Origin: an uncultured Nitrososphaerota archaeon | GTDB taxonomy: Archaea > Asgardarchaeota > Njordarchaeia > Njordarchaeales > Panguiarchaeaceae | Reading direction: 5' to 3' | NCBI GenBank assembly: GCA_964636085.1 | Contig: CAZWPQ010000002.1 | Span: forward strand, 9,481 to 73,480 | Length of the DNA stretch: 64,000 nucleotides | Part shown: positions 9,469-56,858 of the stretch, in pieces | How positions within the stretch are numbered: the first letter of the stretch is position 1 | Layout of the letters: each line of letters begins with the position of its first letter | Notes under the pieces: generated by a model | Seen by the model: only the letters and a program-made list of their open reading frames with translations | Told to the model about the DNA's origin: nothing | The model's database searches: none | Program-made: the position numbers and the translations under genes

Positions 9469-9506
9469 TCTTTGCTCCTAGTGTTCTATGGGAATAAGTT
9501 GCCTAT

Positions 9507-28600: not shown

Positions 28601-30017
28601 ATCAACAGTAATCTCATGGGATGCTATCGATAATTATGGGATCGATAGATACTATGTAAAGGTTGGAGACGGTGCATGGATCGATGTTGGTCTCTCAAAC
28701 AACTATACCGTTACTGGTCTGGTTAATGGAGAAAACACTGTATATATAAAGGCTGTTGATAAGGCTGGCAACGCCGATGTTGAGATAGTGACAATAATTG
28801 TTGATACAGAGCCCCCAACTATCAATATTGTCTATCCTTCAAATGGGACATACATAAATGTGGACAACATAATAATTTCATGGGAAGCAAACGACAACAT
28901 GGAGATAGAAAGGTTTGAGATAAGTATTAATGGTGGAGATTGGATAGATCTTGGAAAGTCAACAGGATACGCAATGGCGGAGATGGATGAGGGAATATAC
29001 CTAATAGTTGTTAGATGTTACGACATTGCTGGAAATGCGAATAGCGATGCCATAACCTTTATCGTGGATTATACGGCCCCAGAATTTATTATGTACTCCC
29101 CACCAGATGGCTCATACTTCAACTACACCAATATTGAAATCCAGTGGAACGCCACAGATAACTATGGAATCGACCACTATGAAGTATATGTAAACAACGA
29201 ACTCCTCTACTCGGGAACAAATAGCAGCCTAGGAGTAGAACTTTCGGCTGACACACATTCCATTAAGATAATAGCCTATGACTATGCTGGCAATTCAAGA
29301 TATGTAGCGATTGTTGTTCACATAGACCTTCAGACTCCATCCATCATAATAACATCTCCATCAGATGGTGCCTATATTAATGAAGACACAATATCGGTGG
29401 CATGGTCTGCCATTGATGACTTTGGTATAGATCATTATTGCATTAGGATAGACAATGAGTCATGGATATCCATCACTAATAATAGATATATGTTCTATGG
29501 CTTAAGTGAGGGGCTACATGCAATATATGTAAGGGCATTTGACAAGGCTGGAAATTCAGCAGAGTCTAATGTATCGATTATTGTTGATCTAACAGAACCA
29601 GCAATAATAATATTGGAGCCAAAGAATAATTCGGAGCTAAATGCCACCACGGTAACAATATCATGGAATGCTACCGACAACTTTGACCTCGACCATATAG
29701 AGATATCCATAAATAATTCGGCATGGCAAGACATTGGACTCACGAATAGCATTAAGCTACAACTAGACTATGGCAAATACATAGTGAAACTGAGAGCATA
29801 TGACAAAGCTGGAAATATGAAGGAAGTAGCAGTAGTATTCATAATCAAGCAAATACAGGCACCTCCATCCCATCTCAAGTGGCTACCCTTCATTGCTATA
29901 GGTGCAGCGATAGCAATAGCACTTGTCTTAGTACCCTGGTGGAAGAGAAGAAAGAGTCGCGCGGCTGAGGAATTAGAGATTATTGAAAAGCCTATTGACG
30001 AGGAGGAGGCGGAATAA
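22623..30017 (+). CDS. Giant membrane-anchored subtilisin-like serine protease (peptidase S8) with large inserts, a PPC-like domain, two duplicated tri-domain modules, 8 Ig-like repeats and a C-terminal TM anchor
   Basis: The catalytic motifs are AIVDTGIDD (Asp), HGHGTHCAS (His), SNSWGG (oxyanion Asn) and GTSMATPHVSG (Ser). DFDLYIYYG resembles a pre-peptidase C-terminal domain. The signal-like N-terminus is SKILRGLSIIFLIVAASIPLA, and an alternative TTG start at 22638 follows GGGTGAGGGGG. The C-terminus is WLPFIAIGAAIAIALVLVPWWKRRK. Confidence 0.95.
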   Translation: MGEGALSKILRGLSIIFLIVAASIPLAKPAKSSDKARIVFIKNNGGLSEFLYQFFRSRGVPVVLVGDNGRPTKSSIIDDTVKSRLTRDDIWDLIRIARGEEIPSVEYQELRTKTGLDIDPVSAGLILKSLDTTIDRDPEVIFLGKYNMYINLRNSYAAMEHWLVNLENYDSDHDKIADKLEEIIAIGTEKIVIPGRKVMLDLGDMIVPIDEIGPKTIEIRYSRDDLIFVDVAAADRRLEEAIAYFKSMGGTIETVYREICAFSGYIELYKVPLLSRSPLIGFIEQHNEYFYPMTSWTVLQMRIGTLSTKLVPPNSYPMNNETPWGRGIFGDPSIAIAIVDTGIDDTHPLTNKVIYWYDYSGDDATSPEDYHGHGTHCASIAAGNIWTGDYVEWGIIARNRTDSFGASGNYYLYIDSPGWYGVAALYYTSSGTADISFEVYDPNHVLLNTSRQVYASFWGTVEIEQAVFNASLPGTYNVSVTNLGTTGGTLIVTWEKQFPYGSYGSQPGRHAGVAPEVKLVGLKIFDRSGWFGDYNFDSIRWLIQNASDYNITVSSNSWGGGDDATLNELMNQLVMSGVVTVVAAGNDGAGGNIGSPGSADLVITVAAMNDINEISEYSTSGDTTTGNTIKPDVSANGGTGYYNGDYIDKEDSDLDGSSGAVAAADSNDADNAPSGGGLLGDAITTLDNFWDIQGTSMATPHVSGLAALVVSALGGASSWVWDGEHALKVKMLILMTSVEFTRAETGQTVPSLDRGGKDNVEGYGRVNGDAAVMAVLNELFPNRTYRYTLGSNNSTAIAQGIAPRVWAGKIYLEAGSRYRFNLTVPSGADFDLYIYYGEPDEYGQPVIAGKSTSDSIGGNEVVDIIATKSGYYYVVVKWVDRSATTPSIPDEQNYGEFTLHIDILDRGIPIVEIIEPEEGDIIEGVTRIYVNATDVDGTITYVYLNISNSTWGTVVDITSNYDASRGLYYYDWDTSTVADGYYMIFAGARDNESKTNNDTIQVHVWNNIPPILLVDDDKGDSYETYYEQALQDLGYQRDIDYIYWDVSVNGTPTKYLLDRVVIVIWFTGDDFTTTLTTEERDVLEYYLSRCGQLFISGQDIGFDIGDTTWYSTWLKANYERDDTNIDYVRGVSGTLFGGAIYNLSGTDSANNNDFPDEISPTGGSTQILYYDDDTGIGAGVMYDDEYRLVYMSFPFEAIDGSVNRSDAMQRATDWMKAPIAKIYDYSFYIDKYTENVSLAIAARAYHYIRNLEILINGTVVYSLSPGRRTYINNITIDTSSFPSGTLNITLRIVDNNLDEVTDTIFISREHLYLDLVFPNTYDPVWSTTRILVNASTYSGVNLTTLNVTISNETWSQIIDILSNYDSQTGYYYYDWDTTGVADGSYNISVSAITDEGSSKTDNVYNIGVWNGIVPILLVDDDNWHDYEQYFMEALENLSYHFNRDYAYWNTTRRGAPPQDFLDRVQIMIWECGLSAPNSAERNAISEFLSDLGQLFISGQDIGYLIGDTDWYKDWLRAIYERDDTNINNVSGVAGTIFEGVTYLLSGSDSANNNFWPDEISPTNGSFLMMYYGRDPSIGAAIGYDGYYRLVYFAYPFESINGSEYRADALDRILQWLRKPIGAIVSPENMTITNNDTIDIIVHAKAITGLDIIRIYVNGSLVVFDDIDGVELIKHYDIDVSGYPDYTTLNITLVTNSVTGDMDTFMIYIIRDKVPPYAEFLSPANGSYFNVTDITFEWNGTDNFGMNHYEIRIDGGAWIDVDLQNEYTFAGLDEGIHTVDLKAIDLAGNQFTTSLTVIVDLTPPVLIDIFPENDSYVQSKVVISWNFSDNYELDCYKIRLDGGAWIMTTSTSHVYEYLTEGEHSVYIRAYDKAGNVKLITLRIIADTTDPYIEITYPPGGTFLNTSTVYVEWYMSDNFELDHCEIRVDGGEWIDVGLASNYTISGMSEGTHIIDVRVYDSAGNYGEDTVVISIDLTPPIIVAVYPDYEFYINTTSTVISWDAIDNYGIDRYYVKVGDGAWIDVGLSNNYTVTGLVNGENTVYIKAVDKAGNADVEIVTIIVDTEPPTINIVYPSNGTYINVDNIIISWEANDNMEIERFEISINGGDWIDLGKSTGYAMAEMDEGIYLIVVRCYDIAGNANSDAITFIVDYTAPEFIMYSPPDGSYFNYTNIEIQWNATDNYGIDHYEVYVNNELLYSGTNSSLGVELSADTHSIKIIAYDYAGNSRYVAIVVHIDLQTPSIIITSPSDGAYINEDTISVAWSAIDDFGIDHYCIRIDNESWISITNNRYMFYGLSEGLHAIYVRAFDKAGNSAESNVSIIVDLTEPAIIILEPKNNSELNATTVTISWNATDNFDLDHIEISINNSAWQDIGLTNSIKLQLDYGKYIVKLRAYDKAGNMKEVAVVFIIKQIQAPPSHLKWLPFIAIGAAIAIALVLVPWWKRRKSRAAEELEIIEKPIDEEEAE
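25341..27750 (+). repeat. Internal duplication within the protease gene: two tri-domain modules of about 400 aa each (Ig-like, then an LLVDDD alpha/beta domain, then Ig-like)
   Basis: Module 1 contains ...YYYDWDTSTVADGYYMI...IPPILLVDDDKGDSYETYY...GQLFISGQDIG...YERDDTNI...FPDEISPTGG...YRLVYMSFPFEAIDGS. Module 2 contains ...YYYDWDTTGVADGSYNI...IVPILLVDDDNWHDYEQYF...GQLFISGQDIG...YERDDTNI...WPDEISPTNG...YRLVYFAYPFESINGS. The divergence is at the protein level; the DNA copies are not identical. Confidence 0.7.
27762..29850 (+). repeat. Eight tandem Ig-like repeats of about 87 aa within the protease gene
   Basis: The recurrent pattern is PP.I.I..P.NGSY.N.t.i.i.W.a.DNfgidhYEirIdgg.WidvG....Yt..gL.eG.H.v.vrAyDkAGN......i.vD.t. 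I counted 8 copies by eye. Confidence 0.85.
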
Positions 30018-36778: not shown

Positions 36779-39700
36779 TTGACTACGAAAGCCTTAATTC
36801 TTGGGGCTTTTCGTAGTCAAGAAGATTCGATGGTGAAGAGTTTGAGAAAGTATAATCAATATTTGTGTTCTCTAATAATTGTCGCTATGTTGGCTACGTA
36901 TGGTGTATATGGTAGTGTGATGAGGATCGCGAATGATGCAAATAGTAGGACTACTACTGCTCATGGGTCGAGTGCCAATAACATGGGTATAATGGAGCAT
37001 AAGCTTGTGATCGGTTATGATGCTACCTTCAGAAACTGTATAATAAATGGGACAGTGGAGATTAGAAACGGATCGAGAGTAATGTTCGAAAATGTAACAT
37101 TCTATGCCGAATCCCTATACTATTGGGTTGAGGGGAGAGAAAAGGGCTTTATAGAGGTCTATGACACTGCGGAGGTAATGATCAAAAATTCAAGGATTAT
37201 AGCTACTTCGTGGTCCCCGCGAATATATGTCTATAATACATCAGGAATCACAATCGATAACGTGAGTATATACTCAACAATGGGAGGGATCAATATATAT
37301 GCATATGGGGACTCAAGTGTAAATATCTATGATTGTAATGCCAGCACAACATTATACATATTCCTTCGTGACTATGCAGCGGCGATTGTGATTAACTCCT
37401 CAATATGGCAGATACTCGCATACGATAATTCGGGCGTATACCTATACGAGAGCATTAATAACACATATATAGAAACACATGATTCCTCATTACTTTATGT
37501 ATTCGGAGCAAAAATGGGGTATGGCGACTATATAAGTGCGGGGGATAATAGCCATGTAGAAATTATAAACACTGTTTTTTCAAGCGGAGGAATAGCCTGT
37601 GATGGACATGCAAGCGTTCAAGCTACACAATCAGTATTGGACTATATAGTTGCGGAGGACGCGGCTAATGTCTCGCTTGTAAATACAAACGTATCAAATC
37701 TCTGGGCATACGATCACGCAGACCTGCATATCAGTGGTGGATACTTTAATTGGATAGATCTATATCATGTTCCTATGGCCGGAGAAGAAGCAATGCTGGG
37801 TCCAGGAGGGGAAATTAAAGATGCGACCATCACAACGCTACATACATCCTCTGCAAGGATAATAAGACTTATTAACTGTTATGTCTCATCGCTTTATTAT
37901 CTCGACATATTTAATGGCTCTTATGCATATGTATACGTTGGTGGCTATATATACGATAGTGCATACCCGAATTATGAGGCGTTAGGATCAACAATAGTCA
38001 ATACTTATCATATATCAGGCGTGGCCGTTGGAAATAATGTAGACCTATTTGTGATCCATAGACCCATGAATCAAATCGTGGCTTTCAATGTAGACAGGCT
38101 TGAAATATACAATATTACTGACACTGGTAGCGTTATTGCGTTATACACGAACTGCTATATATATAATATAAGTGTTTATGATGTAGAATTTGCCTTTTAC
38201 GGGAGCAATGTAACAATAAATAACCTAACATATAAGACTTCTGGCTTTTATTTCTCGTTTCTGGCCAGGGATTCAAACATAACCATATACGACTCCAACA
38301 TAGAGTACATGGATATTAGTATCTATGATTCGAAGGTATCGTTTAGGTCAGTTTTGATAAACAACTCCTATTTATTGATCGAAAACTCTAGTGGGACACT
38401 GGACTGCATAATGGATTCCACGATTCCTGATCTCTCAGATAGTGATATAGTTTTCAACAACTCGGTTATTTCTTCGACACTACATATTTATAGGTCTAAG
38501 GTAGGTCTAATAAACACGACGCTATATGATGTGATAATAGATGAGGTTCGCCTTGCCGACGGCGTTTTCAACATGACTGATGGAGTTATAATTTCCTACA
38601 CCGTGGATATAATAAGTGGTCTATATGAAATAGAACCCTCCAATATTTATAGTGGATATATTTCTATTGACTACTTCGTACTTGATAATGCTTCTCTAGA
38701 GATAGATACCTATACGATCAATGTAATAATGGGGGGATATGTGGATATAGATCTCTATAATTCCTCTAAGTTGTATCTAATAAATGTATCTGCCGTTTAT
38801 CCAAGAGAGGTATGCATCAATGTGTATAATGACTCTGCAATATATCTCTTCGATTCGGATGTCTACACTATATATGCTGAGGGGGATGTCTATATTGAGA
38901 ACACAGGCGTGAACCAAATTGATATTCATAACTCGGACATAGAAATTTTCCACTCCCAAATCTCTGAATTGGAGATGGATAGCTCACGCCTCGTTGCGAA
39001 CTATACCAACTTTTCAGAAATAGAGATAATGTCAGGAGAGGTTATGCTTGATTCATGTTATGTTGATGATATGGGTGGTGGCGACTTGTTTGCATTCATG
39101 TTAAATGGAACGATCTGTGATGCCAACATAACCATATTAAACTCAAATGTCTCTGGATATCATGCACTCCTAGGAGGCAATCTAACGATTAAAAACTCGA
39201 ATGTTTCCGAGATATTTGCAGCATATCAATGGGTGGATATATATGACTCAAATATAGGATTCGCCCTAAATGTAAGCCTATTTACATCGGGATCCGCAAC
39301 CATAAGCAACAACGTGATCACGTCAGGGACATATATGGTTCTACTCCATAAGTATGGTACAACAGTCATAGGAAGCATGGGTTATGCTATTTCAATACTG
39401 CAAGATCCAGATGAACCACTTGTGGATTTAAGTATAGAAAATACTTTTGCTTACCCAGTAGTGGTTGCGCTGGGAGGGAGATTAGATATCGACAACTCGA
39501 TGTTTATGATTGTATTTGTAAATACAGATACAGATTTTAGAGCCACAAATTCCATCATTAATGCCTCAGAAATGGAGGAAGTCCCAGTAATTTTGGTGGC
39601 GAGTACACTCTACATGGATAATGTAACAATAATCTCAGAGATGCTTATACTTGCGGCATCGAATGATGCACAAATCCTCAACTCGGGATTTAATGTTGAT

Positions 39701-40957
39701 GGTATATACATATATAATACAACAATAACAATCACAAATACCGACGTAACGCCCTTTGCAGATCCAGATGGAACAGTCATTGCGAATTCCTACGTCTCTG
39801 TGGAGTATTCGACAATACTTGCAGCAACGTTATATGAATCCACACTTCATCTAAACGTAGTGAATGTCATTGACGCCAATGTAGAGGGTATTGTATTGTC
39901 CGAGGGATCCGTGCTGGATGGGGATAGTGTGAATGCATCAAATATACTAGCAGCCTACATGTTCAAGTATTACTTCATGATATTTACGATGGTCTCCACA
40001 TACGATATCCCGGTAAGAAATATAGATGTTCATCTCGTAAACTCTAGGATAATGGAGGGATACATCAAATATTATGTGGTTGATAATCCACTCGGCGCTG
40101 AATTTGATAACGAAACAATAATGGGTTCATATAGTACTTTAACAAACTACTCAAACTCATACACGACAGGCGCGGTACCATATTTCGTTTTCAGAATCTC
40201 TGGGAGTGGACATGCCAACATAACTAATTACAGGGGAGGAAATATAATACACTCCATAATGATCATGGCTACCCGGGACATTTCGCCGCCAGAAATAGCT
40301 GCACTTAATGCCAGTACGATAGAATATGAGTATGGGCTAGAGAGGAAGTTGTGCTATGTGCTGAATGACGAGACGCCAACGAATTATAAGGTCTCTATCA
40401 ATGATACAATCATCGAAACCGGCATATATACAAGTGGATATACGCTATGTGTGGACCTTGCCACATACATAACTTCTCCTGGTTATTATGTCGTTAAAGT
40501 ATATGCCTATGATAGTGACCTAAATAGTGTATATACAACAACTTATGTTCGTGTACATCCCGCAGAGGCACCACTTATAACACTGGAGCCTAAGGATAAT
40601 TACACGATTAATGTAGGTGAAGGAATAATACTTAACTGGTCGGCGACAGATCTTTCCCCCGATTTATATCAAATTATTGTCAATGGATCAAAGGTGGAGG
40701 AAAAATCTTGGGCGTCTGGCGAGGTAATATCGTATGAATATCAGGCAGAAGATGTTGGGAAGGTCAATATAACCATAGTATTCCAAGACCAGCTAGGGCT
40801 AAAGTCTACAGATACTGTAATTCTAAATGTCACCAAGGCAACAACCACAAAGAAACCTATAACTTATATTGCCATAGGTGCCATAGCTTTTCTTGCTTTG
40901 GTAGTCGCCATAATATTACTAAAGAGGAAAGGAAAACCTATGAAGGAGGAGGAATAG
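36779..40957 (+). CDS. Giant surface protein: signal peptide, about 1150 aa of degenerate short repeats consistent with a parallel beta-helix, Ig-like modules, and a C-terminal TM anchor. The likely start is ATG 36830.
   Basis: Short units rich in N/S/T/I/Y/V recur with a period of roughly 20-25 aa (…VNIYDCNAS…, …ITIYDSNIEYMDISIYDSKVSF…, …IYLFDSDVYTIYAEGDVYIENTGVNQIDIHNSDIEIFHSQISELEMDSSRL…). There are many N-x-S/T sequons. The C-terminus is ITYIAIGAIAFLALVVAIILLKRKGK. Confidence 0.85.
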   Translation: MTTKALILGAFRSQEDSMVKSLRKYNQYLCSLIIVAMLATYGVYGSVMRIANDANSRTTTAHGSSANNMGIMEHKLVIGYDATFRNCIINGTVEIRNGSRVMFENVTFYAESLYYWVEGREKGFIEVYDTAEVMIKNSRIIATSWSPRIYVYNTSGITIDNVSIYSTMGGINIYAYGDSSVNIYDCNASTTLYIFLRDYAAAIVINSSIWQILAYDNSGVYLYESINNTYIETHDSSLLYVFGAKMGYGDYISAGDNSHVEIINTVFSSGGIACDGHASVQATQSVLDYIVAEDAANVSLVNTNVSNLWAYDHADLHISGGYFNWIDLYHVPMAGEEAMLGPGGEIKDATITTLHTSSARIIRLINCYVSSLYYLDIFNGSYAYVYVGGYIYDSAYPNYEALGSTIVNTYHISGVAVGNNVDLFVIHRPMNQIVAFNVDRLEIYNITDTGSVIALYTNCYIYNISVYDVEFAFYGSNVTINNLTYKTSGFYFSFLARDSNITIYDSNIEYMDISIYDSKVSFRSVLINNSYLLIENSSGTLDCIMDSTIPDLSDSDIVFNNSVISSTLHIYRSKVGLINTTLYDVIIDEVRLADGVFNMTDGVIISYTVDIISGLYEIEPSNIYSGYISIDYFVLDNASLEIDTYTINVIMGGYVDIDLYNSSKLYLINVSAVYPREVCINVYNDSAIYLFDSDVYTIYAEGDVYIENTGVNQIDIHNSDIEIFHSQISELEMDSSRLVANYTNFSEIEIMSGEVMLDSCYVDDMGGGDLFAFMLNGTICDANITILNSNVSGYHALLGGNLTIKNSNVSEIFAAYQWVDIYDSNIGFALNVSLFTSGSATISNNVITSGTYMVLLHKYGTTVIGSMGYAISILQDPDEPLVDLSIENTFAYPVVVALGGRLDIDNSMFMIVFVNTDTDFRATNSIINASEMEEVPVILVASTLYMDNVTIISEMLILAASNDAQILNSGFNVDGIYIYNTTITITNTDVTPFADPDGTVIANSYVSVEYSTILAATLYESTLHLNVVNVIDANVEGIVLSEGSVLDGDSVNASNILAAYMFKYYFMIFTMVSTYDIPVRNIDVHLVNSRIMEGYIKYYVVDNPLGAEFDNETIMGSYSTLTNYSNSYTTGAVPYFVFRISGSGHANITNYRGGNIIHSIMIMATRDISPPEIAALNASTIEYEYGLERKLCYVLNDETPTNYKVSINDTIIETGIYTSGYTLCVDLATYITSPGYYVVKVYAYDSDLNSVYTTTYVRVHPAEAPLITLEPKDNYTINVGEGIILNWSATDLSPDLYQIIVNGSKVEEKSWASGEVISYEYQAEDVGKVNITIVFQDQLGLKSTDTVILNVTKATTTKKPITYIAIGAIAFLALVVAIILLKRKGKPMKEEE
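36781..36818 (+). other. Hairpin (13-bp stem with one bulge) immediately upstream of the probable start of the 1392-aa gene
   Basis: GACTACGAAAGCC-(11 nt)-GGCT(T)TTCGTAGTC. It ends 12 nt before ATG 36830, from which a signal-like peptide (MVKSLRKYNQYLCSLIIVAMLATYGVYG) begins. Confidence 0.5.
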
Positions 40958-41169: not shown

Positions 41170-42492
41170 ATGCGTGGGAGTCGAAAGTATTTTCTCATTC
41201 TCTTATTCGGCATTATATTAGTCTCGATAACATATGTTGAGGCCGCTAACGGCTATCCTGACTGGATAAAAAAAGGCACCTATGCCAAGTACTCAGGCAC
41301 TATATATGGTGGTGGTGAAGTAGAGGAAGAAGTAGAATTTATAAGTGACGTCTATGGCAGTAAGGTATTGGTTAAATACTACGTGAAAGAGGTTCTTGGT
41401 GGCATGACATGGTCAAATACCTCAATACTAGAGGTAGATGTCAATACGCGAGAAACAAATGTTACGATATTTGATCCATTTAGCGGTACAAATAAAACAG
41501 TATACTTCAACTTGTGGATAGAGCTGGATGTCGATGTAGGAGATTATGTCAATATCTCTATATGGACACTGAAGGTATCGTCTATTGGGGATAGGATAAA
41601 AGTTAAGGCATATTCATATAAAAGACAGACAATAAGGGTTTATGGTTCAGTTTATACATATTCTGGGTATAGTGTATATTGGGAACTATACTATGACAAA
41701 GACACGCATCTCCTCCTATACATTCATACTTGGTTCGAGTATGGCTCACAATCTGTTGATACTCTTGAAGTAGAACTTGTGGACACAAATGTACCTCTTC
41801 CTCCCCTTCAAATTAGTCAAACCGAATTGTCATGGTCAGCTATTAGCATGACGCTTGGTATAATTAGTGTTGCAGTAGTTATATATATGGGCACATTAAT
41901 TGGGGCTGTGGGATACGGAGCTATACCTGCTTATGGGGCGGGTTGTCCTAGGGAAGGTATGGAGGGAGGAGGCCCTGCGGTATCTGTGGATCCAGAGAGG
42001 GCCAGTAGGTTATCTGGTCTGAAAAAATTTGGTGATGACATTCTCGACAAATTATTTAGATTCGCAGCGAAAAAGGCAATAGAGCGAGGGTCAGAAGTCA
42101 GAGAGCCTGATTCAAAGAAAGTTACAGCATTTTTAGTTGTCTTGGCTGCGGTTATCGGAGGGCTACTTGGTGTATACTTTGGTTTTAAAGAAATCCGTAG
42201 TTTTATCTCACTCATAATGCCCTCCATAGGAGTAACACTTGGCATGCTTGGTTTTATTGTCATGATCCTACTATTTCTAGGATGCGCCCTTGGAGTATTT
42301 AGGTTCTGGAAACTCTACGTGCCAATACTATTGCTAATACTCACAGTACTGGAACTGATAGGCCTATTCTTCTCAACAATGACCCTTGTAAATATGTTGG
42401 GTATAATAGCTGTGGCAATCATCCTGCCACTGTATACTGTTGCCTTTCTTGCGGGGATAATGCTATTCTCAACAGTAATTCCCACACTATAA
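41170..42492 (+). CDS. Hypothetical membrane protein: signal peptide, an ectodomain of about 200 aa, a TM helix, a charged cytoplasmic linker and a C-terminal 4-TM bundle
   Basis: The N-terminal MRGSRKYFLILLFGIILVSITYVEA is signal-like. The TM is WSAISMTLGIISVAVVIYMGTLIGAV. The linker is ...SRLSGLKKFGDDILDKLFRFAAKKAIERGSEVRE. Four hydrophobic helices follow to the C-terminus. Confidence 0.8.
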   Translation: MRGSRKYFLILLFGIILVSITYVEAANGYPDWIKKGTYAKYSGTIYGGGEVEEEVEFISDVYGSKVLVKYYVKEVLGGMTWSNTSILEVDVNTRETNVTIFDPFSGTNKTVYFNLWIELDVDVGDYVNISIWTLKVSSIGDRIKVKAYSYKRQTIRVYGSVYTYSGYSVYWELYYDKDTHLLLYIHTWFEYGSQSVDTLEVELVDTNVPLPPLQISQTELSWSAISMTLGIISVAVVIYMGTLIGAVGYGAIPAYGAGCPREGMEGGGPAVSVDPERASRLSGLKKFGDDILDKLFRFAAKKAIERGSEVREPDSKKVTAFLVVLAAVIGGLLGVYFGFKEIRSFISLIMPSIGVTLGMLGFIVMILLFLGCALGVFRFWKLYVPILLLILTVLELIGLFFSTMTLVNMLGIIAVAIILPLYTVAFLAGIMLFSTVIPTL

Positions 42493-42509: not shown

Positions 42510-43099
42510 AACCTAATCCCTAGTATTCCTTATATTACCACTAAGAGAAGTTTATGTAGTGGGTTTGGGGTTCTTCTATTTGAGAAGAGATTCTTGGGTT
42601 GGCTTGTGTTATTTCAATTGTCGCTACGGCCTGTAGAAATTCTTCTGGTCTAAGTATTCTTACATATTTTGTACGTACTCTGAGTAGCTTTTCTTTGTAT
42701 CTTTTCATGATATATAACATATAAGTTGCAATAAATTACGAAGACATTCAATCTTAGGATTCTGTATGAGCTAGAACAATAGACGATTCTGTAGCCCTAC
42801 TCATAAATACGGCAATAAGAATCCATGATGTGCTCTTAGAAGTGCCGAAAACATACAGACGGATACATATGGTCCGTGTAAAACAATAAATTGATATTAC
42901 ATAAATTTCTAGGATCGTCGATGCTAAATAATTCGCGAAAAGTTTTACTGTATTAACACCAACATAGCTCGTCTATATATTCAATTTTTTCCTTTATATA
43001 TTCTTTTTGTATCTTAATCAAAACGCCCAATTAGAAATCGATCGCATAATGTCGGTTTCTAATTGGGTCCTAAACATAAAAACTGTGTGGGTGTAACTA

Positions 43100-46000
43100 T
43101 TGGTAAGGGGGAAGCTGGCCTGTCTATTATTAATATTGGCGATTTTGACGCCCAGACTAGTCGTTTTTAACGATTTTGATGGGGTTTCTAGTGTTGAGTC
43201 TAAAGGAACAGAGGACGATTTTGTTGACATATGTTTGTTCTACAGCGAGTATAATTCTCTACTTGGGAGATCATCCGAGAGACTGTACTTCAATATAAGG
43301 TACATATATCCACATGTTGACTTGTGTGGTGTGCGTAGTATTTATGATATAACGCTGAAAGCCGATGATTACGACATACTTATCTTGATGTTCAATACTA
43401 CACGGGACTCCGTTATCGTAGGTAATACACCACTATCATGGGGCGAATTTGTGGATTTTCTACGCATGTATCCTGATAAGGAAATCATACTCTTACTGGG
43501 CAACTCCTACATGCTGAATGAGACAAGCGATAATTGGCATTTTGAAAGCGTAGAATATGATAGTATCTATGCATATGAGACCTATGGCGTCTGGAAGGTT
43601 GCCAAGATATTCGAATCCCTAGGCCCAGAATATAAATGGTACGCATTAAAGTTGAAGGAGAGCGCGCTCAGCTATTACTTCGATAACATAGACAGAATAT
43701 TCGAATCAAAAATTACGCCATCACAAGTAATTGGAAGCAGGGATGAGGAGTATAGAAAGGCAAAAATAGAGGAATACCTAAGAGAACATCCCTCCTCCCT
43801 TAGGGTCAGGGTAGCCGATGAGAAAAACCCCAATGGCCCAATAATATACATTAGAAATTTTGCTAAGAATTCAGATGGATATGACTACTTACCATTCCCC
43901 AAGATGTCCGGGATTGCAAGTTCTATCGGGGATTTCATTGACGAGGTGCTGGGCTTCTTATCTGGCAATGGTTGTGATTTTCTAACAATAAATTTCTCGG
44001 TGATAGATCAAATCGTAGATGCATTTAAATCCGTATATGATTTTATTGGCGACCCCGCAAAAATGGGGGAGGGATCGCTGCTCAAGGGGTTCCTAGGCTC
44101 GCTGATGCAAGAGTTTCCATACATTGAGAACTATACAAAATACTTGGATCTTTTTATGGACGGCTTCTATGCCCTCAAGGGCGACATAAGTTCCATACTG
44201 GACTTCCTAATGGGGGCCATCGATCTAGTCTTTCCTTCGGGAACGGGAGTGGATGAGTATATAGAGCAATTAAAATCCATAGCGGGGGAGATATTATCCA
44301 TAACTGACCAAGTAATGAATCTTTACCAGAGAATCACCAGCAACAAAATTAGCATGGTTCTCCAGTATATAATGGGGAAAATCACCAATATTACGATCCA
44401 AGAATTCCTAAAAAACATGACTGGAATAACAGATTTTGACTCGCTATATAACAGATTGAGCTCACTGTTCTCCATTGGCATGCAGATATTTACACTCCAA
44501 AACATAACAGATTTCGCCTCAAAATTGTTCAAATTTATAACGGAGGACTTGAATATCTTTGATTATCCCGACATTGGCGACATAGCAGGAAAAATAAAGT
44601 CTATAATATCCCTAGCATTATCGTTTCTAGAGAAAGAAAAATCATCTCTATCGCAACTACTGAGGGACGCCATAACCTCATTCATAGGCGAGTCATATAT
44701 ATCGGACATAGAGAAAATGGTTGATGATATACTGGATGAAGTTGATGATGCCATAAAAGAGGCAGAATCTGATATAGAGGGCTTTAGGTCACGCATAGAG
44801 GACATCATAAACACTTATGTCTCTAATTTCCCCGATCTGGAAGAGGTAAGAGAGATACTAAGAGAAGTAATAACACTGATAACTGCGATCTCAAACCCCG
44901 GATTTGATATCTCAGAGGCTACTAGCCTCATAGAAATATTTGAGGATATACTAGAGACCTATCTTTCTGGATATGAGGATGATATCAATCGTTTATTCTT
45001 AATATTGAACTCCACTGTAATCCCAATAGGGCTTCTAAATGCTCCATCAAGACTACAGAAGGCATTTCTAAAACAATTAAACCCATTATTGGACATGCGG
45101 CAAAATGTCCTAAGATACCTAATAGAAACGGTAAAGAGAATAATAATGGATACGGAGGAGTACGTTCAGATAGAAGATGTGCTGAAGTACATAGAGAATG
45201 GAACAACAATAATCAGCGCAATACTTAACATAATCTCGGAGGTTAGGGAGAGACCATTCGATGGGATAACGTCGGCCCTAATGTTTGCTGCGTCCATCAC
45301 ACAGACCCAGTTATTTGGCAATATGACTATAGGAAATCTGACGACATTTCTAATGGCATTATTACCGGATCTAATGGGGCTAGATAGGGTACCATCTTTG
45401 GAGGAATGTAAGAATATGATAATCAATGCTCTAAGTGGATTTAGTTCTCAAATAAAAACCACGGTTATTACGCTATTCGAGTTCCTGTATGACATTAGAG
45501 AGGTTATGAGGAATGGAGTAAAATGGTTTACAACAAAGATACTCGATTGGGTGGCTGGATATGTAGCGGACTTTGTTTCAGATCTTGTTGGGGAGATAGA
45601 GGATATAATAGACCAGTATACGTTTCTTAATCTAGAGGGAGATATGAATTTTGGTTTTGCTGGGCTTGATGCTATTACATTTTCATACAAGATAGTTATA
45701 AGCGCTGGGGTCGACATTGATGAGTCTGGACTAACTAATGATATTAAGGACATGATATTGAGGGGTAAGTATTTAGACTTCTTGAACCCGATAAAGGTTT
45801 TCGAAACGTTGATAGGCCATGTAACAATAACGCCCATAATAGAGGCACAGATAAAGATGTCATCGATGGCTACGAATACAGATCTTCTAGGCGAAATTAT
45901 AGGTCTTCTAGGAGCGGATATAAGTATAGAAGGAGAGGCCAGATTTAAACTGGTATTGTTCTCATTCAAATCTGGTACCTTCGATATGAGCGAATTCCTA

Positions 46001-49000
46001 GACTTGAAGGAGTGGTATCTAATGTTCTCAATGTCCATATCAAAGACATTTTCAATATTTGACATAATCGGGGCGCCAGAATTGGCATCGGTAGCTGAGG
46101 ATCTGGGTCTGGACCTGATAACTGTTACTCTTACAATTGGATTCAAACTAGAAATAAACCTTGGATCTGAGAGTGAGGATAGTGGGGCACATTCCATATT
46201 GTCGCTAGAGATTACCGTGGCTGGAACACTCCACATAGGTATCGATGTAGTGATAGCTGAGGTCTCCATAGACTTCACACTATCTATATCCTTCACATTT
46301 ACCATAGACACGTCAAAGCCAGACCCATTACTATTTGAGATATCAGTGAAATACAAACTCAAGATACATGCAGAATTCCTATTTGTAGGAAAGACATGGA
46401 AATTTGGTGGCACTATATTCACATATCAATTCCCAGAGAACGAGTCGGATACCCCAGATAAGCATGCAGGAGGATTTGATGAGGATGCTGACGGCCTCCC
46501 AGATAACTTCGAGAAAGAAAACTTTGGATTCTCACCCACAAGAGCAGACACAGATGAAGACGGTCTAGGCGATAATGAAGAGTTAAATGCGTATGGCACA
46601 GATCCACTGGATCCAGATACTGATGGGGATGGATTGACAGACTATGATGAGATAAAGGTATATGACACTAATCCATTCATAAGAGACACTGATAATGATG
46701 GCCTGACGGATTATGAGGAAACCATAATATATGCTACGGATCCCCACGAGGTGGATACCGATGGGGATGGATTAGATGACTATTTTGAAGTACACTATAC
46801 ATGGGACATTAGTAATGTGACTATAAGCATTTCTGGAGTATCGATTGGTGGAGAAATATACTATGATCACACAGATCCTCTGAATCCTGATACTGATGGC
46901 GATGGGCTTCTTGATGGCCAAGAAGGGCCTCTAGGTGGCTATTATCTCCCATTTGCGTACGATTTTGGCGAAAACCCAATAATATTTAATTATGGCTATA
47001 CGCATCCATTAGACAATGATACTGATGATGATTCATACATGCAGGAACCCGATGGATCTATTAGGGAGCCAAAATATTTCTTAAGATCTATGACCGATAA
47101 AGAAGAGATAGATGGCATTACAGTAGTCTATATAGATCCCGAAGAGGGGCCGGTGCTAAGAACATTTAGGACAAATCCGATATGTCCAGACTCTGACCAA
47201 GACACTGGCAGTTCTACAATACTGTTGAGTGATGGATACGAGTTATCCCGAAATCCACCCTCAAATCCATTAAACGGAGATAGTGATGGCGATGGGATTA
47301 TAGATGGTAATGAAGGTACGTCATCACCATATTCAAATAAGACAGATCGTCTAAACCCAGATACAGATGGAGATGGTCTTGGGGATATGCAGGAAATAGT
47401 TTTGGGTCTTGATCCAGGTGAGCCTGATACTGATGGTGATATGGTGTCCGATGGGGATGAGTTTATTAAATATGGCACGAACCCAAGGCTTTTTGATAGT
47501 GATAATGATAGACTTAGTGACGGTGAGGAATTATTCTATTGGCACTCTAACCCAATGTTAAAAGATAGTGATAATGATGGTATAATAGATGGTGATGAGG
47601 TACTCATATACTTTACAGACCCCATGGACGAGGATTCAGACAACGACAATCTTACAGATCCGATGGAGATATTTGTATACCATACAAATCCATTGGAGGC
47701 CGACAGTGATTATGATGGTCTTGTTGATGGAGACGAGATTTTCCTATACAATACAAGTCCACTGAACTGGGATAGTGATGGTGACTCCATACTATATCCA
47801 AACGAGACGGGAGATATAACATGGCCCATGAGTGATTATAGAGAAATATTCGTCTTTGGCACAGACCCACTAGACTCTGACACGGATAATGATGGCTTAT
47901 CAGATGCGATAGAGACATACTTGGCTAGCGGGAAAATACCCAACTTTGAACCAATAATGCTTGATGCAAATAATAACGATACTGATGGCGATGGGCTGAT
48001 CGATGGCCATGAAATCCATATTAGGAATATAAGCGATATCGTCTATCCCTACGTGAGCTTTATCATATATTATCCACTCAATTCATCGCCACTCCTAGTA
48101 GATACCGATGGTGACGGTCTCACTGACTATAGAGAAATAATGATATATGCAAGCAAAGCAAACTGTAATGATAGTGATGGTGATGGTCTCAGTGATTATG
48201 ATGAGGTGGTCATCTATAATACCAGTCCAATATACTGGGACACAGATAAGGATAATATATCTGACTATGACGAGGTTAATGGTTTTGTTGCGTCGCTTGG
48301 CTATAAATTCCCAGATTTAATGACGGTGTTCTATACAGATCCTGCTGATCCAGACACTGATGATGACTACTTGCCGGATGGATATGAGGCACAAGTACTC
48401 AGATCAAACCCCACAATAAAGGACGAGGATAATAATGGAATTGAAGATGGATTGGACTTTGATACAGATGGCGACATGTTGAGTGACGGATTGGAATTCT
48501 ATGTATACAATACCTCATACTATCCTGGTGGTGGTCCATTAAATCCTGATTCGGATCAGGACGGGCTTAGCGATGGATCAGAAGTATATGTCTATGGTAC
48601 TGATCCAGCTGATCCCGATACAGATGATGATGGTATATTGGATGGGGCCGAGGTAGCGGCTGGGACAGATCCACTATCATTTACATCGTGGGAAGAATAT
48701 GTTGATGCTCTCAACATTTTGCTTGGGGGTAACTATATAAAGATACTGAGTCCTAGAGGCACCATTATTGATAAGTATACGAATGTTAGGGTGATTAACG
48801 GTACTACATTCACTGAGATGTGGTTTAGATATAAAAAGATTGGGGACGACTTTTCGAGTAATTACTCACTGGTCTATGATCCAGATTCGCTTCAATGGGT
48901 ATATAGCGACATTGTCTGGGAAGAAGGAAACTATACCATAGAGGTATTTGGAAGAACTCCTGGAGGAGAAGTATTTAAAGCAACTGAGGAGTTCGGGTTC

Positions 49001-55100: not shown

Positions 55101-56858
55101 TCTCCAAATATCGAGGGAAGTGTTTTCACATTTGATATAAATTCTGATGGCCTAGACGAGCTAATAGCATGCAACTATACCAACGGCATGTATGATTTAA
55201 TGGTAATCGATATACTGAATGGCTCCATTCTAAGTATTCTAGAGACAAAGTCAAGGTTCCAATATAGGTGGTATAGTATCGTGAATATCGATGGCGACGA
55301 GTTCCCGGACATATTCGCATATACAGAGATGGGCGAAATTGTGATCTCCACTAAAAACTTCGACGTTATATGGATGGATGAGTTCAGGTACTACAAAGAG
55401 TTCTATGAATTTGTTGACTATGATGGAGATGGAAGAACAGAAATATTGTACTCGTTTAATGGAGGCACAATACTATCCAATTCCTATGGATGCCCCATAC
55501 TATACTATGGAATCCCCAACAACAGGACATTCATGACGCTGGGCGACATCGATATCGACGGAGAAATCGAATTAGTTGGGTATCTCGAAAACGGAGTATT
55601 TGTCGTTGTAAACATAACACAGTTCAATGAATCATTAACCGGAGTCGCATACTTAGAACCAAAGATTGTTGGTGAGAAACAGATTGTTGATGAGATGGAT
55701 TACGGCCTGATGGCTATAGCCGACATAAACAAGGATGATAACGATGATATCATTATATCAAACACAACCAATCTAATCGTGTATGACTTCTATATGGGTG
55801 ACTATGTATTTAAGACAGATCTAAGGATGCAGATACGTGAGATCCTTACAGGCGACATGCTTGGCTACGGGTATAACTCCACAATCGTTGTATATGGGGA
55901 CTACGACGTCACTATCTTCGACAATACGGGGCAAATAATAGTGGATATGCGTGTTGTTAGTGGTAAAAACTATATAGTGAGGGCGTTTATAGGAAATTTC
56001 ATGGGATCCGCGAAGGATGAGGTCATCGTAGTAACAACACTAGGTACATACTGTATTGATGAGTCGGGCATATACTATCTATTAACAATAGGCTCAAATA
56101 CATATCCAATTGTTGGGGACTTTAATGGGAATGGCTACCTAGACATAGCATATAAGATGTTGGGAACATCGACCCTATATGTGTATGAGGGAGACGGAAC
56201 ATTTATGTGGAGCAAAACACTGAGCACTAGTTCTGGAAATATGTTTGCATGCGATGTATTCACTCTAGATATAAACAAGGACGGCATAGATGATATAATA
56301 TTCACAGACTTCAATGGTACTATAGCAATATATGATGGCTCCTCTGGAACAGCCATCTATAAGATACCCACAGGTATACACTCGTACGCCCTATCGGTGG
56401 ATATCGACAGAATGTTTGGTACTGGTGGCCTAGTAGTCAAATATCTAAACTATGGTCTCTATGTATTTAAGCTAGATGGATCAATGGTCTATCACTTCCC
56501 CGATATGTCAACCTCAGGATATATTCCGGCTTATGTATCTGGAATAGGATACACCTACTTCGCTATGACCCCAGGGAAAATATTTGGAGTAAACCGCTAC
56601 GACAGATACATCTATAAATCTCTTAGCTACGAAACTGTAGCATTCAACCGAATGGTAATGGCCAATGAAATATATATAGTATCCCTCGCAAAAACTGGCT
56701 ACGTAACAATCATAAACATAGCCGATCTCTCATCCAATCCCATAAGACCTAGCACTCTCTCCAATGGTCACAGCGATAATTGGAATGGAGCAACCCTACT
56801 ATTGATAACGGCAATTCCACCAATTGCCGTGGCTATATACGTGAAGAAGAAAGAATAA
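49152..56858 (+). CDS. Giant surface protein: signal/anchor helix, at least 20 FG-GAP/VCBS-type repeats (integrin-alpha-like propellers), an embedded BNR (sialidase-like) propeller region and a C-terminal TM anchor
   Basis: FG-GAP-like units include GDINGNGLPDMLVGLRNGELVLFE, IGDLDGDGIDEVSII, ADVDGNGYKDIVLAFGGKLYMLW, YGDVDSDGKGEVIVGDFDNNVYIFE, VGDANGNGWDEIIIATDYGNVYSYE and VGDFNGNGYLDIAY. The BNR motifs are YSDDGGKTW (about 53270) and SMNGGQTWSKP (about 53965). The gene overlaps the upstream gene by 26 nt. An alternative GTG start at 49170 follows GGAGGTGAGG. The C-terminus is LLLITAIPPIAVAIYVKKKE. Confidence 0.92.
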   Translation: MREVRRVHRRKILALLVIIGMIAPIFVVLNTNQSTYDVGENKGFETSSSQHMDFNDLFSEKSISYSWSGNYYPENWSFIKYLKDNPNEYRKVWEPWLTKAAIHSIVTNDNGTMIAFGGGYLYDNEIHIYRWNYVTQNYEKVWDSGDGIISGDVVSLDFADTDNNRLMEVVAGSADGHIYVFEQRHVFDPITNTEHMFDLVWKSEFLGPVWRVMVYDMDLDYDPDIVAGTWNNKIYMFEYEDHSGYPYSTSHWISYKMVWESPELSDKILSFVCGDINGNGLPDMLVGLRNGELVLFENNGTIIQAPDYYLPLPQDNSYKIIWSYNYGSYAPILDMSIGDLDGDGIDEVSIIESGREAYVLDYSETYDRFDLIKLYYPPKSFELDPPHPIDYYIDWMISGINVYYNNSTAYIAEPSEEIDIYDNNTAMGGPPDGKYSEFLPNATHNATAVLDFGMQEEAAGDGTYYFDICMVLMYKQGYDLVPNRTSMRIYVSKYGYKYVEVKDYFVYDFGSVAYLFFDIDGILKNNSWKHIRYLKIVVPYGYKFAIDAIITYDIDKQLSDVTSTYITELDLDYYGEKNYLLFGTVNGRLVIFQYNDTIHRYEMVYDSLSEDMFSLENNIWDIVKVMPDKRFPYWTKYWEKGIDLGTKKMIDFEYFDIDHDDNYDLLIGTDKGTVLLYRYQWGTFINDSYATSKIFGDINGVSKSNLTLRMCDILNNKPNKPGIELILGYYKDVQYNLRIFYLYNPAVLTYSFEYTYDVAEHEITGKLYSLFHYSGVRSPVTFDVADVDGNGYKDIVLAFGGKLYMLWYLYGDASGPVFMLDEKYFEDIPNLLKNKKPFKPQLVDFNNDGVYDLVISYLNKNGTTYFENIGTVDEPIWVQKRTLFANSLRSLNPVTNFAFNGYTLSEIEKIGDTYWLIANKRGTSTFILFNGETDRIQTLALATYPLLTVINMAPVVPKASENFGYHIFEVWSNHRDLHGWTQAVDYGDVDSDGKGEVIVGDFDNNVYIFEHMINNTYKRAFRSGDLYYEIVTNTSPYYSEELVGLQGTFKRRIWEHARYLVANTDIDGDAKLEAIVATKYQIFVFEHERYENYILEYRYSFLEHPLGSEILEQTNGISAFAYAGDMDYNGYGEIIVALDNYLFVLEMTEDGFIETFSSLVSIFADKIIDYAATHKYYLLDPVFVLPGNPYTYYYDLMGQGVNDYSEFEIRAIIIVDLDNNGNKEIIIGGLNRSLECPSLRDGFLYAIENEFGTYYIRWSAPDNVLYENAINALDVDDQDYDGKKELYVAGDKGVDVFEASDTSYLEYITTISGDPNHPFVNNMALYNNSPLAYDDEKFDDADIVVTPQGRIFVIYQSEYTITATKTTEIFYSYSDDGGKTWYGPYILAPTTDYSGTPLFEKFPRALYHNGSIYIAWYASIDVSGIVQYNICYRTLDPQTLVKGPIEYPVKSMSDVISDLSIWRFPVKFWYVSYDMGISYINYTDRCIYPMFRLLGSWYPLVSKKIEYIYDGNWTLFFRHDIAYIGAYRWLIAFTMYIPDQYGRRLIWTSITDTSFSSWTMPVTIYDSYELQEYPNVEYIESENVTVVSGMRYTVSHYWEPFLCVSMNGGQTWSKPKYLYRYHPRVKIVCSNGVPRYQFLTRTYEDLGMHRTYALRVSARNGYFVYSMPAMITYNPLGTIGTVYDIIVGVRDSYEWLRFDVSKVDVLAVGDTDGDWRREVIVNMDDYVVVVEISDNNESYRRYTQKAILGPFNRTIQDIVVGDANGNGWDEIIIATDYGNVYSYEFLYSTWLGSDFRVPNEEFSKKYLISASLISFYGLGNIDNDPQPEYYFTTMYGLYVYDHIWENFSHMLFYPAKINYTVAFNPLGEDKIDFILALNNGTVYRIDGETFSVVAEKDIATDGFVDIILTNTTVFLANKSGFVIELTLDSLSEVFTYNLDAVNTTGIGIGYYLGGISRIFIQLDNDTLYCIDYQSASLAWTIHVSPNIEGSVFTFDINSDGLDELIACNYTNGMYDLMVIDILNGSILSILETKSRFQYRWYSIVNIDGDEFPDIFAYTEMGEIVISTKNFDVIWMDEFRYYKEFYEFVDYDGDGRTEILYSFNGGTILSNSYGCPILYYGIPNNRTFMTLGDIDIDGEIELVGYLENGVFVVVNITQFNESLTGVAYLEPKIVGEKQIVDEMDYGLMAIADINKDDNDDIIISNTTNLIVYDFYMGDYVFKTDLRMQIREILTGDMLGYGYNSTIVVYGDYDVTIFDNTGQIIVDMRVVSGKNYIVRAFIGNFMGSAKDEVIVVTTLGTYCIDESGIYYLLTIGSNTYPIVGDFNGNGYLDIAYKMLGTSTLYVYEGDGTFMWSKTLSTSSGNMFACDVFTLDINKDGIDDIIFTDFNGTIAIYDGSSGTAIYKIPTGIHSYALSVDIDRMFGTGGLVVKYLNYGLYVFKLDGSMVYHFPDMSTSGYIPAYVSGIGYTYFAMTPGKIFGVNRYDRYIYKSLSYETVAFNRMVMANEIYIVSLAKTGYVTIINIADLSSNPIRPSTLSNGHSDNWNGATLLLITAIPPIAVAIYVKKKE

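Follow-up and report, generated by a model that had tools for sequence, protein, structure and literature searches.

What does the N-terminal half of a giant surface protein do when it resembles no named family? This question is raised by a stretch of 64,000 nucleotides (positions 9,481 to 73,480 of contig CAZWPQ010000002.1, assembly GCA_964636085.1; hereafter the window) from an uncultured Asgard archaeon of the order Njordarchaeales. Here an open reading frame (ORF) of 2025 aa at 43100-49177 on the forward strand encodes a protein with TSP3 repeats, which we call subunit A. The initial annotation recognized no family in its first ~1100 residues and considered them a stalk or spacer of a surface structure, or a module inserted into a membrane or partner. 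By its predicted structure, this region is a real, ordered and unclassified head, a new domain architecture among giant calcium-repeat surface proteins. On balance, we favor the reading that it is the non-enzymatic interaction head of a two-subunit Asgard surface complex, made of A and the product of the next gene, subunit B.

The topology of A places the region far from the membrane. Hydropathy reveals only two membrane-like segments, residues 6-24 and 1982-2000. The ORF starts with a TTG at 43100, preceded by GGGTG 8 nt upstream, and there is no in-frame ATG. The hydrophobic core of the first, signal-like segment is just 12 residues long, with P-R after it; homologs have AXA-like cleavage regions following this segment, and we infer that the signal peptide of A is cleaved. 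From its sequence, A is a type-I membrane protein whose ectodomain spans ~1950 residues. Since the sole membrane anchor is C-terminal, the N-terminal ~1100 aa make up the membrane-distal head, with the TSP3 array as spacer. The only family that Pfam recognizes in A is TSP3_bac (PF18884), in the C-terminal half, with none in residues 1-1122. The array is acidic (25% D+E), the conserved domain between it and the membrane is probably beta-rich, and each segment of the protein contains 0-2 cysteines. Topology and the PF18884 match thus bear out the initial placement of the region at the cell surface, upstream of a calcium-binding array. N-glycosylation sequons are enriched both in the helical domain of the head (8 versus 3.1 +/- 1.5 expected) and in the TSP3 part (13 versus 5.7 +/- 2.2), which speaks for exposure outside the cell, and the head is probably glycosylated. 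The head is genuine coding sequence, conserved over its full length with expectation values (E) down to 1e-160 in distant genomes. An antisense ORF of 324 aa within the beta-module coding region, 45448-46422 on the reverse strand, was rejected as a shadow ORF; homologs have antisense ORFs of 120-400 aa at shifting positions, and this one is not kept.

We modeled the head with AlphaFold2. Model 1 covers residues 1-1122 and was built with 11 close homologs (predicted local distance difference test [pLDDT], 68.7); model 2 covers residues 296-1122 and was built with 43 homologs at ~20% identity (pLDDT, 79.2; predicted template modeling score [pTM], 0.65). Both models agree on the layout: an alpha/beta domain, a poorly modeled segment, a helical domain and a beta module. 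The alpha/beta domain, residues 44-205, has a pLDDT of 85-90 in model 1, with 5 strands alternating with helices. In the helical domain, the helices are mostly short (8-27 residues), except for a last one of 56 residues (783-838), and pLDDT is mostly 80-92. Strands of the beta module are 11-20 residues long in the prediction, and the short helices lie in their connections. Hydrophobic periodicity, calculated from sequence without any structure, follows the same order. It is of the alpha type over ~257-832 (global peak at 3.49 residues, power 164 versus a shuffle maximum of 69 +/- 15.5) and switches to a period of 2 across ~833-1110. The hydrophobic/polar alternation of the strands is maintained in the 43 homologs at ~20% identity. 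I, L, V, F and M together make up 39-40% of the helical and beta modules (39% in the helical domain). Cross-comparison of seven blocks of the helical domain by hhalign gave no probability above 55%, and we found no internal repeats there. The helical and beta modules are predicted to pack as one unit rather than as an extended coiled coil.

These models clarify what the initial annotation had proposed. The head is ordered, neither disordered nor of low complexity, and the order globular, helical, beta is borne out by AlphaFold2 and by periodicity. The boundaries needed revision: the helical part spans ~540 aa rather than 600, and the globular domain occupies 44-205 rather than 30-250. The helical stalk or spacer is not supported. 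The head is membrane-distal, its 24 mostly short helices are packed with the beta module, and since short-form paralogs, described below, do without the helical domain, an obligatory stalk role fits poorly.

The head has no relatives among known families. We searched Pfam, NCBIfam and PDB sequences with the head as a single sequence and as profiles of 11, 41 and 43 sequences, and found no credible match. The best sequence-profile matches were designed helical bundles (E, ~1e-4), along with sub-threshold coiled-coil-like families and matches such as syntaxin and ATG17; all of these fell far short of the cut-offs, and we regard them as noise. The failure to recognize a family at first reading therefore stands, including under profile-profile comparison, which gave no confident match. 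The same holds for catalytic or binding motifs: none was found in the head through Pfam, NCBIfam or PDB sequences. At the level of folds, Foldseek searches of the head models against PDB and BFVD gave no convincing relative, and nothing at all from BFVD. The N-terminal domain has a flavodoxin-like match (3hly; probability, 0.99; template modeling [TM] score, 0.41 over 96 columns), and it has no Pfam or PDB sequence relative.

Conservation within the family points to scaffolding or binding. Its strongest motif, P267..S270-G-L-x-G274-P-I-G277..D281..L284, lies in the linker that follows the N-terminal domain; G212, P267, G277 and L284 are invariant in 41 sequences, and the linker may be an interface or hinge. 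In the N-terminal domain, W114 is invariant and G134-N135-T near-invariant family-wide. Polar residues around the strands and adjoining loops are conserved in most lineages (D49, S/T100, H129, N135-T136, E152 and D155); the copy in the window has lost D49, H129 and D155. Across residues 296-1122, in 43 sequences at ~20% identity, the invariant or near-invariant positions are almost all Gly, Pro or hydrophobic, the exceptions being W817, E971 and D1070. Since the conserved residues are of this kind, a scaffold or binding role is favored over catalysis.

How widespread is the head? A word-indexed search found just 10 full-length homologs, one of them labeled Candidatus Njordarchaeia, and taken alone would suggest a narrow orphan. 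A shallow-alignment search for related loci returned three, with a same-order match on a contig of Candidatus Njordarchaeum guaymaensis. Exhaustive profile and genome searches corrected this picture to that of a widespread family. Among 1.84 billion representatives, the profile search found 99 matches to the head. Searched in six frames, 400 genomes of the phylum yielded the head in 99 (25%), in 38 of 85 genera (45%), and in 27 of the 90 high-quality genomes. A typical genome match covers profile positions 5-1115 in a frame of 2050-2260 aa. The family is single-copy in the genome of the window, and many other genomes have two copies. Source names of cluster members include Asgardarchaeia, Heimdallarchaeota, Hodarchaeales, Thorarchaeota and Njordarchaeia, and all are annotated "hypothetical protein." As far as these searches show, the family is restricted to Asgard archaea. 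Two records carry other labels. A 3.7-kb contig binned as "Candidatus Coatesbacteria" (QMNJ01000170.1, L061) encodes residues 713-1122 at 80% identity, and CAZVPA010000046.1 (L060), labeled "uncultured Nitrososphaerota archaeon," has a same-genus homolog; both look like mis-binned or misclassified Njordarchaeales DNA.

A is accompanied by a second giant. Directly downstream, ending at 56858, lies gene B (2568 aa). It is listed as starting at ATG 49152, but no ribosome-binding site precedes that codon. GTG 49170 is found 5 nt after the Shine-Dalgarno sequence GGGAGGTGA and overlaps the TAG stop of A by 8 nt; given this placement, it is the better start for B. We read the junction in seven loci (the window, L001, L002, L055, L057, L058 and L059). 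In all seven, a Shine-Dalgarno sequence (consensus, GGAGG[GT]) sits in the last codons of A, and the start of B abuts or overlaps the stop of A. A conserved Gly-Gly in the tail of A is explained by this arrangement, because the Shine-Dalgarno sequence for B is embedded in its codons. The order A then B also occurs in L001, in L002 and in four of five further genomes that were read, including a closed Lokiarchaeial genome of 6,035,313 bp, where the pair is located at ~4.811-4.825 Mb; the B proteins of the window and of this genome are 30% identical over 1895 aa. In the fifth genome (G347, L056), A and B are fused in one 4839-aa frame.

The association holds across the phylum. A search of the same 400 genomes for B found it in 91 genomes and 38 of 85 genera. 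Matching coordinates by hand, we counted 64 long-form and ~10 short-form loci where B comes after A with contig and strand shared, and in the cases checked where B is missing, the contig ends inside or just after A. Single frames of 4271-4901 aa spanning A and B are present in five genomes; among the fused forms, P0017 (4348 aa) combines TSP3 repeats with propeller domains. Furthermore, one large family of the phylum (G317, G324, G326, G328, G334, G335, G336, G355 and G383) has a second, shorter paralogous pair on the same strand: an A-like protein of ~1550-1650 aa that lacks the helical domain and, after it, a B-like protein of ~1950 aa. Adjacency, fusion and translational coupling are strong genetic evidence that A and B are co-produced.

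Short forms also show how the head is put together. The N-terminal domain alone (profile positions 5-320) or the beta module alone is found in other TSP3 proteins of 1500-2040 aa. The beta module, residues 840-1108, aligns to residues 403-666 of P0065 (1612 aa), a short form without the helical domain, with an hhalign probability of 99%. Since modules occur apart in the short forms, the head consists of three separable units and is not one domain. Without the helical domain, the beta module would have to bury its own hydrophobic face. The initial annotation had suggested looking for the head on other C-terminal arrays. All scanned architectures but one still have TSP3 repeats, the exception being P0084 (914 aa, with weak PKD matches only); what does vary is which head modules are present, along with occasional inserts (NlpC/P60, PKD). 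In P0018 (2800 aa, from JGI/IMG), the head has ~500 extra residues, among them a peptidoglycan-peptidase domain of the NlpC/P60 family (706-784), and a PKD domain precedes the TSP3 array. The NlpC/P60 domain, of a kind that cuts bacterial walls, is here carried by a surface protein of an archaeon.

We propose the following arrangement. Residues 1-1120 of A would be the membrane-distal head of a type-I anchored surface glycoprotein, built of a flavodoxin-like alpha/beta domain with its linker, a helical module of ~540 aa and a beta module of ~270 aa. The TSP3 array and the small membrane-proximal domain would hold this head off the membrane, where it would most likely contact the co-translated FG-GAP propeller giant B, an external ligand, or both. 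The A-B pair may then form a two-subunit complex that contributes to the irregular, non-S-layer coat of cultured Asgard cells. Physical binding of A to B would be part of this arrangement, as would an adhesive or coat role. Some observations weigh against this proposal. Only ~25% of genomes carry the family, so it cannot be a universal envelope component. The linker, residues 214-296, is modeled at low confidence (pLDDT below 50 in the 11-sequence model), though it is highly conserved. Finally, the conservation of D49, H129 and D155 in other lineages could reflect a site for a ligand or metal, or even an activity, that the Njord-lineage copy would have lost.

The fold matches suggested other roles. 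For model 1, the top PDB matches in Foldseek were MTP (6i7s; E, 5e-6; probability, 1.0), 8eoj, lipovitellin (1lsh) and honeybee vitellogenin, with E up to 6e-4. In large lipid transfer proteins (LLTPs; MTP, vitellogenin/lipovitellin, apoB), as in A, the helical domain comes first and large amphipathic beta sheets come after it. This order, together with the hydrophobic composition of both modules, would suit a head whose helical domain and sheets form a cavity that holds or shuttles lipids or other hydrophobic molecules at the surface. With model 2, vitellogenin 9ens_A is still the top match and the only one below 1e-3 (E, 5.8e-4; probability, 0.84; TM, 0.09-0.12), but MTP is no longer among the top 50, so the similarity fades in the more confident model. 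The LLTP matches of model 1 have TM scores of 0.06-0.11 at a root mean square deviation (rmsd) of ~36 A. Over both models, TM is 0.06-0.12 and rmsd 36-38 A, whereas a fold-level superposition would reach a TM of ~0.5 or more; what matches is secondary-structure order alone. Moreover, the N-terminal domain of A is alpha/beta and not the beta-barrel of LLTPs. Vitellogenin_N (PF01347) and Vit_open_b-sht (PF09172) match neither A nor any of 43 homologs at E <= 1, and a six-frame search of the genome of the window at E <= 10 found nothing at the A locus. We therefore rejected LLTP membership and take the likeness as a coincidence of secondary-structure order; a lipid-binding or lipid-transfer head seems to us quite improbable. 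The sole Vitellogenin_N match in this genome (G000) is weak (E, 0.012), in an 829-aa frame at 59007-59492 of contig C7, reverse strand. It is probably helical-repeat noise, and control genomes match too.

The beta module could instead insert into, or lie on, a foreign membrane, that of a partner bacterium, a vesicle or a neighboring protrusion, as a barrel or amphipathic sheet. Its strands alternate strictly between hydrophobic and polar residues family-wide, and its distal position, ~900 residues from its own anchor, suits reaching another surface. Foldseek finds a weak likeness of the long helix plus beta module to the autotransporter EspP, a barrel that has a helix inside (3slo; 289 columns; probability, 1.0), as well as likeness to parts of FepA and OmpT. 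However, the EspP match has an E of 0.12, a TM of 0.35 and an rmsd of 10 A, under fold-level similarity. W and Y together make up 2.5%, with no aromatic girdles, and we did not assign the module to outer-membrane or autotransporter beta-barrels. Helices break up its strand connections, any soluble sandwich or barrel is expected to show the same alternation, and AlphaFold2 packs the module with the helical domain (model 2). We know of no barrel-assembly machinery in archaea. Insertion into another membrane is, in our estimate, a poor bet. A polytopic membrane domain in the helical part, for which there were weak Foldseek matches to a pyrophosphatase, CLC and Nramp, was rejected on hydropathy; the sole long charge-free stretch, 722-756, is not kept as such among homologs. 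A further reading is an enzyme, with a helical toroid and beta-sandwich as in several polysaccharide lyases or glycosidases, or a Rossmann-type site in the N-terminal domain. PL17 alginate lyase 8bdd_A is among the weak Foldseek matches (E, 0.11), yet with a probability of 0.09 and a TM of 0.07-0.09. Polar residues of the N-terminal domain are conserved in most lineages, and some members do have true enzyme inserts, such as the NlpC/P60 domain of P0018. Residues 296-1122, by contrast, have almost no conserved polar residues, the window copy lacks three of those in the N-terminal domain, and no Pfam, NCBIfam or PDB sequence matches at all. We consider catalysis by the head very unlikely.

An interaction head, the reading we favor, can be compared with known surface systems. 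Calcium-stiffened giant adhesins of the RTX type (MpIBP and LapA are examples) carry a distal head on a long array of calcium-binding repeats, which keeps it off the cell. Like bacterial TSP3/RTX-type adhesins, A is very large and acidic, has few or no cysteines, and combines a repeat array with a distal non-repetitive head. Unlike them, A is held in the one membrane of an archaeal cell by a transmembrane helix at its C terminus, its head modules have no relatives in those adhesins, and a propeller giant is its obligatory partner, either separate or fused to it. Integrins offer another parallel. A and B, like the integrin alpha and beta chains, are both type-I membrane proteins that end in short basic tails; FG-GAP calcium-binding propellers form the core of one (B), and the other (A) carries an alpha/beta domain at its N terminus, raised on a long leg. 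Co-translation or fusion of the two genes points to production in a 1:1 ratio, and the linkage of A with B is genetic (adjacency, fusion and translational coupling). By this analogy, the A head and B propellers might form an integrin-like two-subunit adhesion receptor, the head gripping partner cells, vesicles or substrate in the contact-dependent, crawling way of life recently shown for Asgard archaea. We regard this as unlikely. A has no match to VWA/beta-I, to a metal ion-dependent adhesion site (MIDAS) or to Integrin_beta, the marks of an integrin beta subunit. The fold matches of its N-terminal domain are flavodoxin-like, and the family consensus after strand 1 is Y-D-P-x-D, versus D-x-S-x-S in MIDAS. 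It has TSP3 repeats in place of a cysteine-rich PSI/EGF stalk, and its head is three times larger, with unrelated helical and beta modules.

Descriptions of Asgard cells provide a context for such a complex. Cultured Asgard cells have no S-layer and display unidentified complex protruding surface densities (PMC9834061; bioRxiv 10.1101/2025.07.22.663070), and adhesion is part of Asgard crawling motility (PMC13716822). The A family is not named in any of these three reports. The "badge" protein of Nerearchaeum marumarumayae, LOKIASV2_13140, is described as novel in fold, its beta-sheet domains as very large, and homologs of it as occurring throughout the Promethearchaeaceae (bioRxiv 10.1101/2025.07.22.663070). 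It may belong to the same family as A. All four listed genomes of the family to which the 6.04-Mb Lokiarchaeial genome belongs (G135, G136, G138 and G141) carry the A family, which can be set beside the spread of the badge protein. In contrast to what we see for A, the preprint mentions neither a TSP3 stalk nor a partner gene.

Table 1. Features of the A-B locus, in window coordinates; residue numbers are those of A
Feature	Position	Strand	Basis
TTG start and signal peptide, residues ~1-27	43100-43180	+	n-region R3, K5; core 6-17; then P18-R19
N-terminal alpha/beta domain, residues 41-210 (core 44-205), possible flavodoxin-like three-layer fold	43220-43729	+	AlphaFold2, Foldseek
Conserved linker, residues 211-298	43730-43993	+	strongest motif of the family, alignment of 41 sequences
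All-helical domain, residues 299-838, 24 helices	43994-45613	+	AlphaFold2, periodicity
Beta module, residues 843-1111, ~10 long amphipathic strands and 4 short loop helices	45626-46432	+	AlphaFold2, periodicity
Array of TSP3-type calcium-binding repeats, interrupted by inserts, residues 1123-1870	46466-48709	+	Pfam PF18884, E 1.8e-40
Conserved membrane-proximal domain, residues 1876-1965	48725-48994	+	invariant W1908, F1909, Y1926, D1927, Q1932-W-V-Y1935
Transmembrane helix 1982-2000, basic 25-residue cytoplasmic tail and stop	49043-49177	+	Kyte-Doolittle 2.85
Shine-Dalgarno sequence GGGAGGTGA for B, within Gly-Gly codons of the A tail	49156-49164	+	read at the junction
Partner gene B; its giant product has FG-GAP/BNR propellers, a signal peptide and a transmembrane helix at the C terminus	49170-56858	+	domain search, junction reading

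Several other elements surround the pair (Table 1). In a 600-nt AT-rich intergenic region upstream of A, an inverted repeat at 43026-43067 has 16-nt arms, CCCAATTAGAAATCGA and TCGGTTTCTAATTGGG, that are 94% complementary around a 10-nt loop; it ends 32 nt 5' of the TTG. A 59-aa basic ORF (MLYIMKRYKEKLLRVRTKYVRILRPEEF...) lies at 42541-42720 on the reverse strand in the long intergenic region 5' of A, and at the Njordarchaeia locus L002 the equivalent divergent position is taken by a 78-aa AbrB/MazE-like gene. Two further giants predicted to be at the surface are encoded in the window, neither related to the A head: an S8 subtilase of 2464 aa that has Big_7 and Y_Y_Y domains (22623-30017), and a 1392-aa protein without a Pfam match (36779-40957). 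A comparison of the head with the neighboring giants at 36779-40957 and 41170-42492 revealed no paralogy.

The head defines three new domain families, whose members are now left unannotated as "hypothetical protein." It is a well-predicted fold without a PDB relative, and the N-terminal domain, the helical-plus-beta unit and the beta module alone are expressible targets that would serve structure determination, antibody production and subtomogram fitting. Models of eukaryogenesis give a central place to contacts of cells with each other and with a substrate, and such contacts have been ascribed to the surface densities of cultured Asgard cells, which as yet have no gene assigned to them. Few large surface systems are conserved in several classes of Asgard archaea, and the A family, with B as its obligatory partner, is among them. 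If the integrin-like reading were true, the pair would be an analogue, ancestral or of independent origin, of the receptors by which eukaryotic cells adhere to matrix and to each other.

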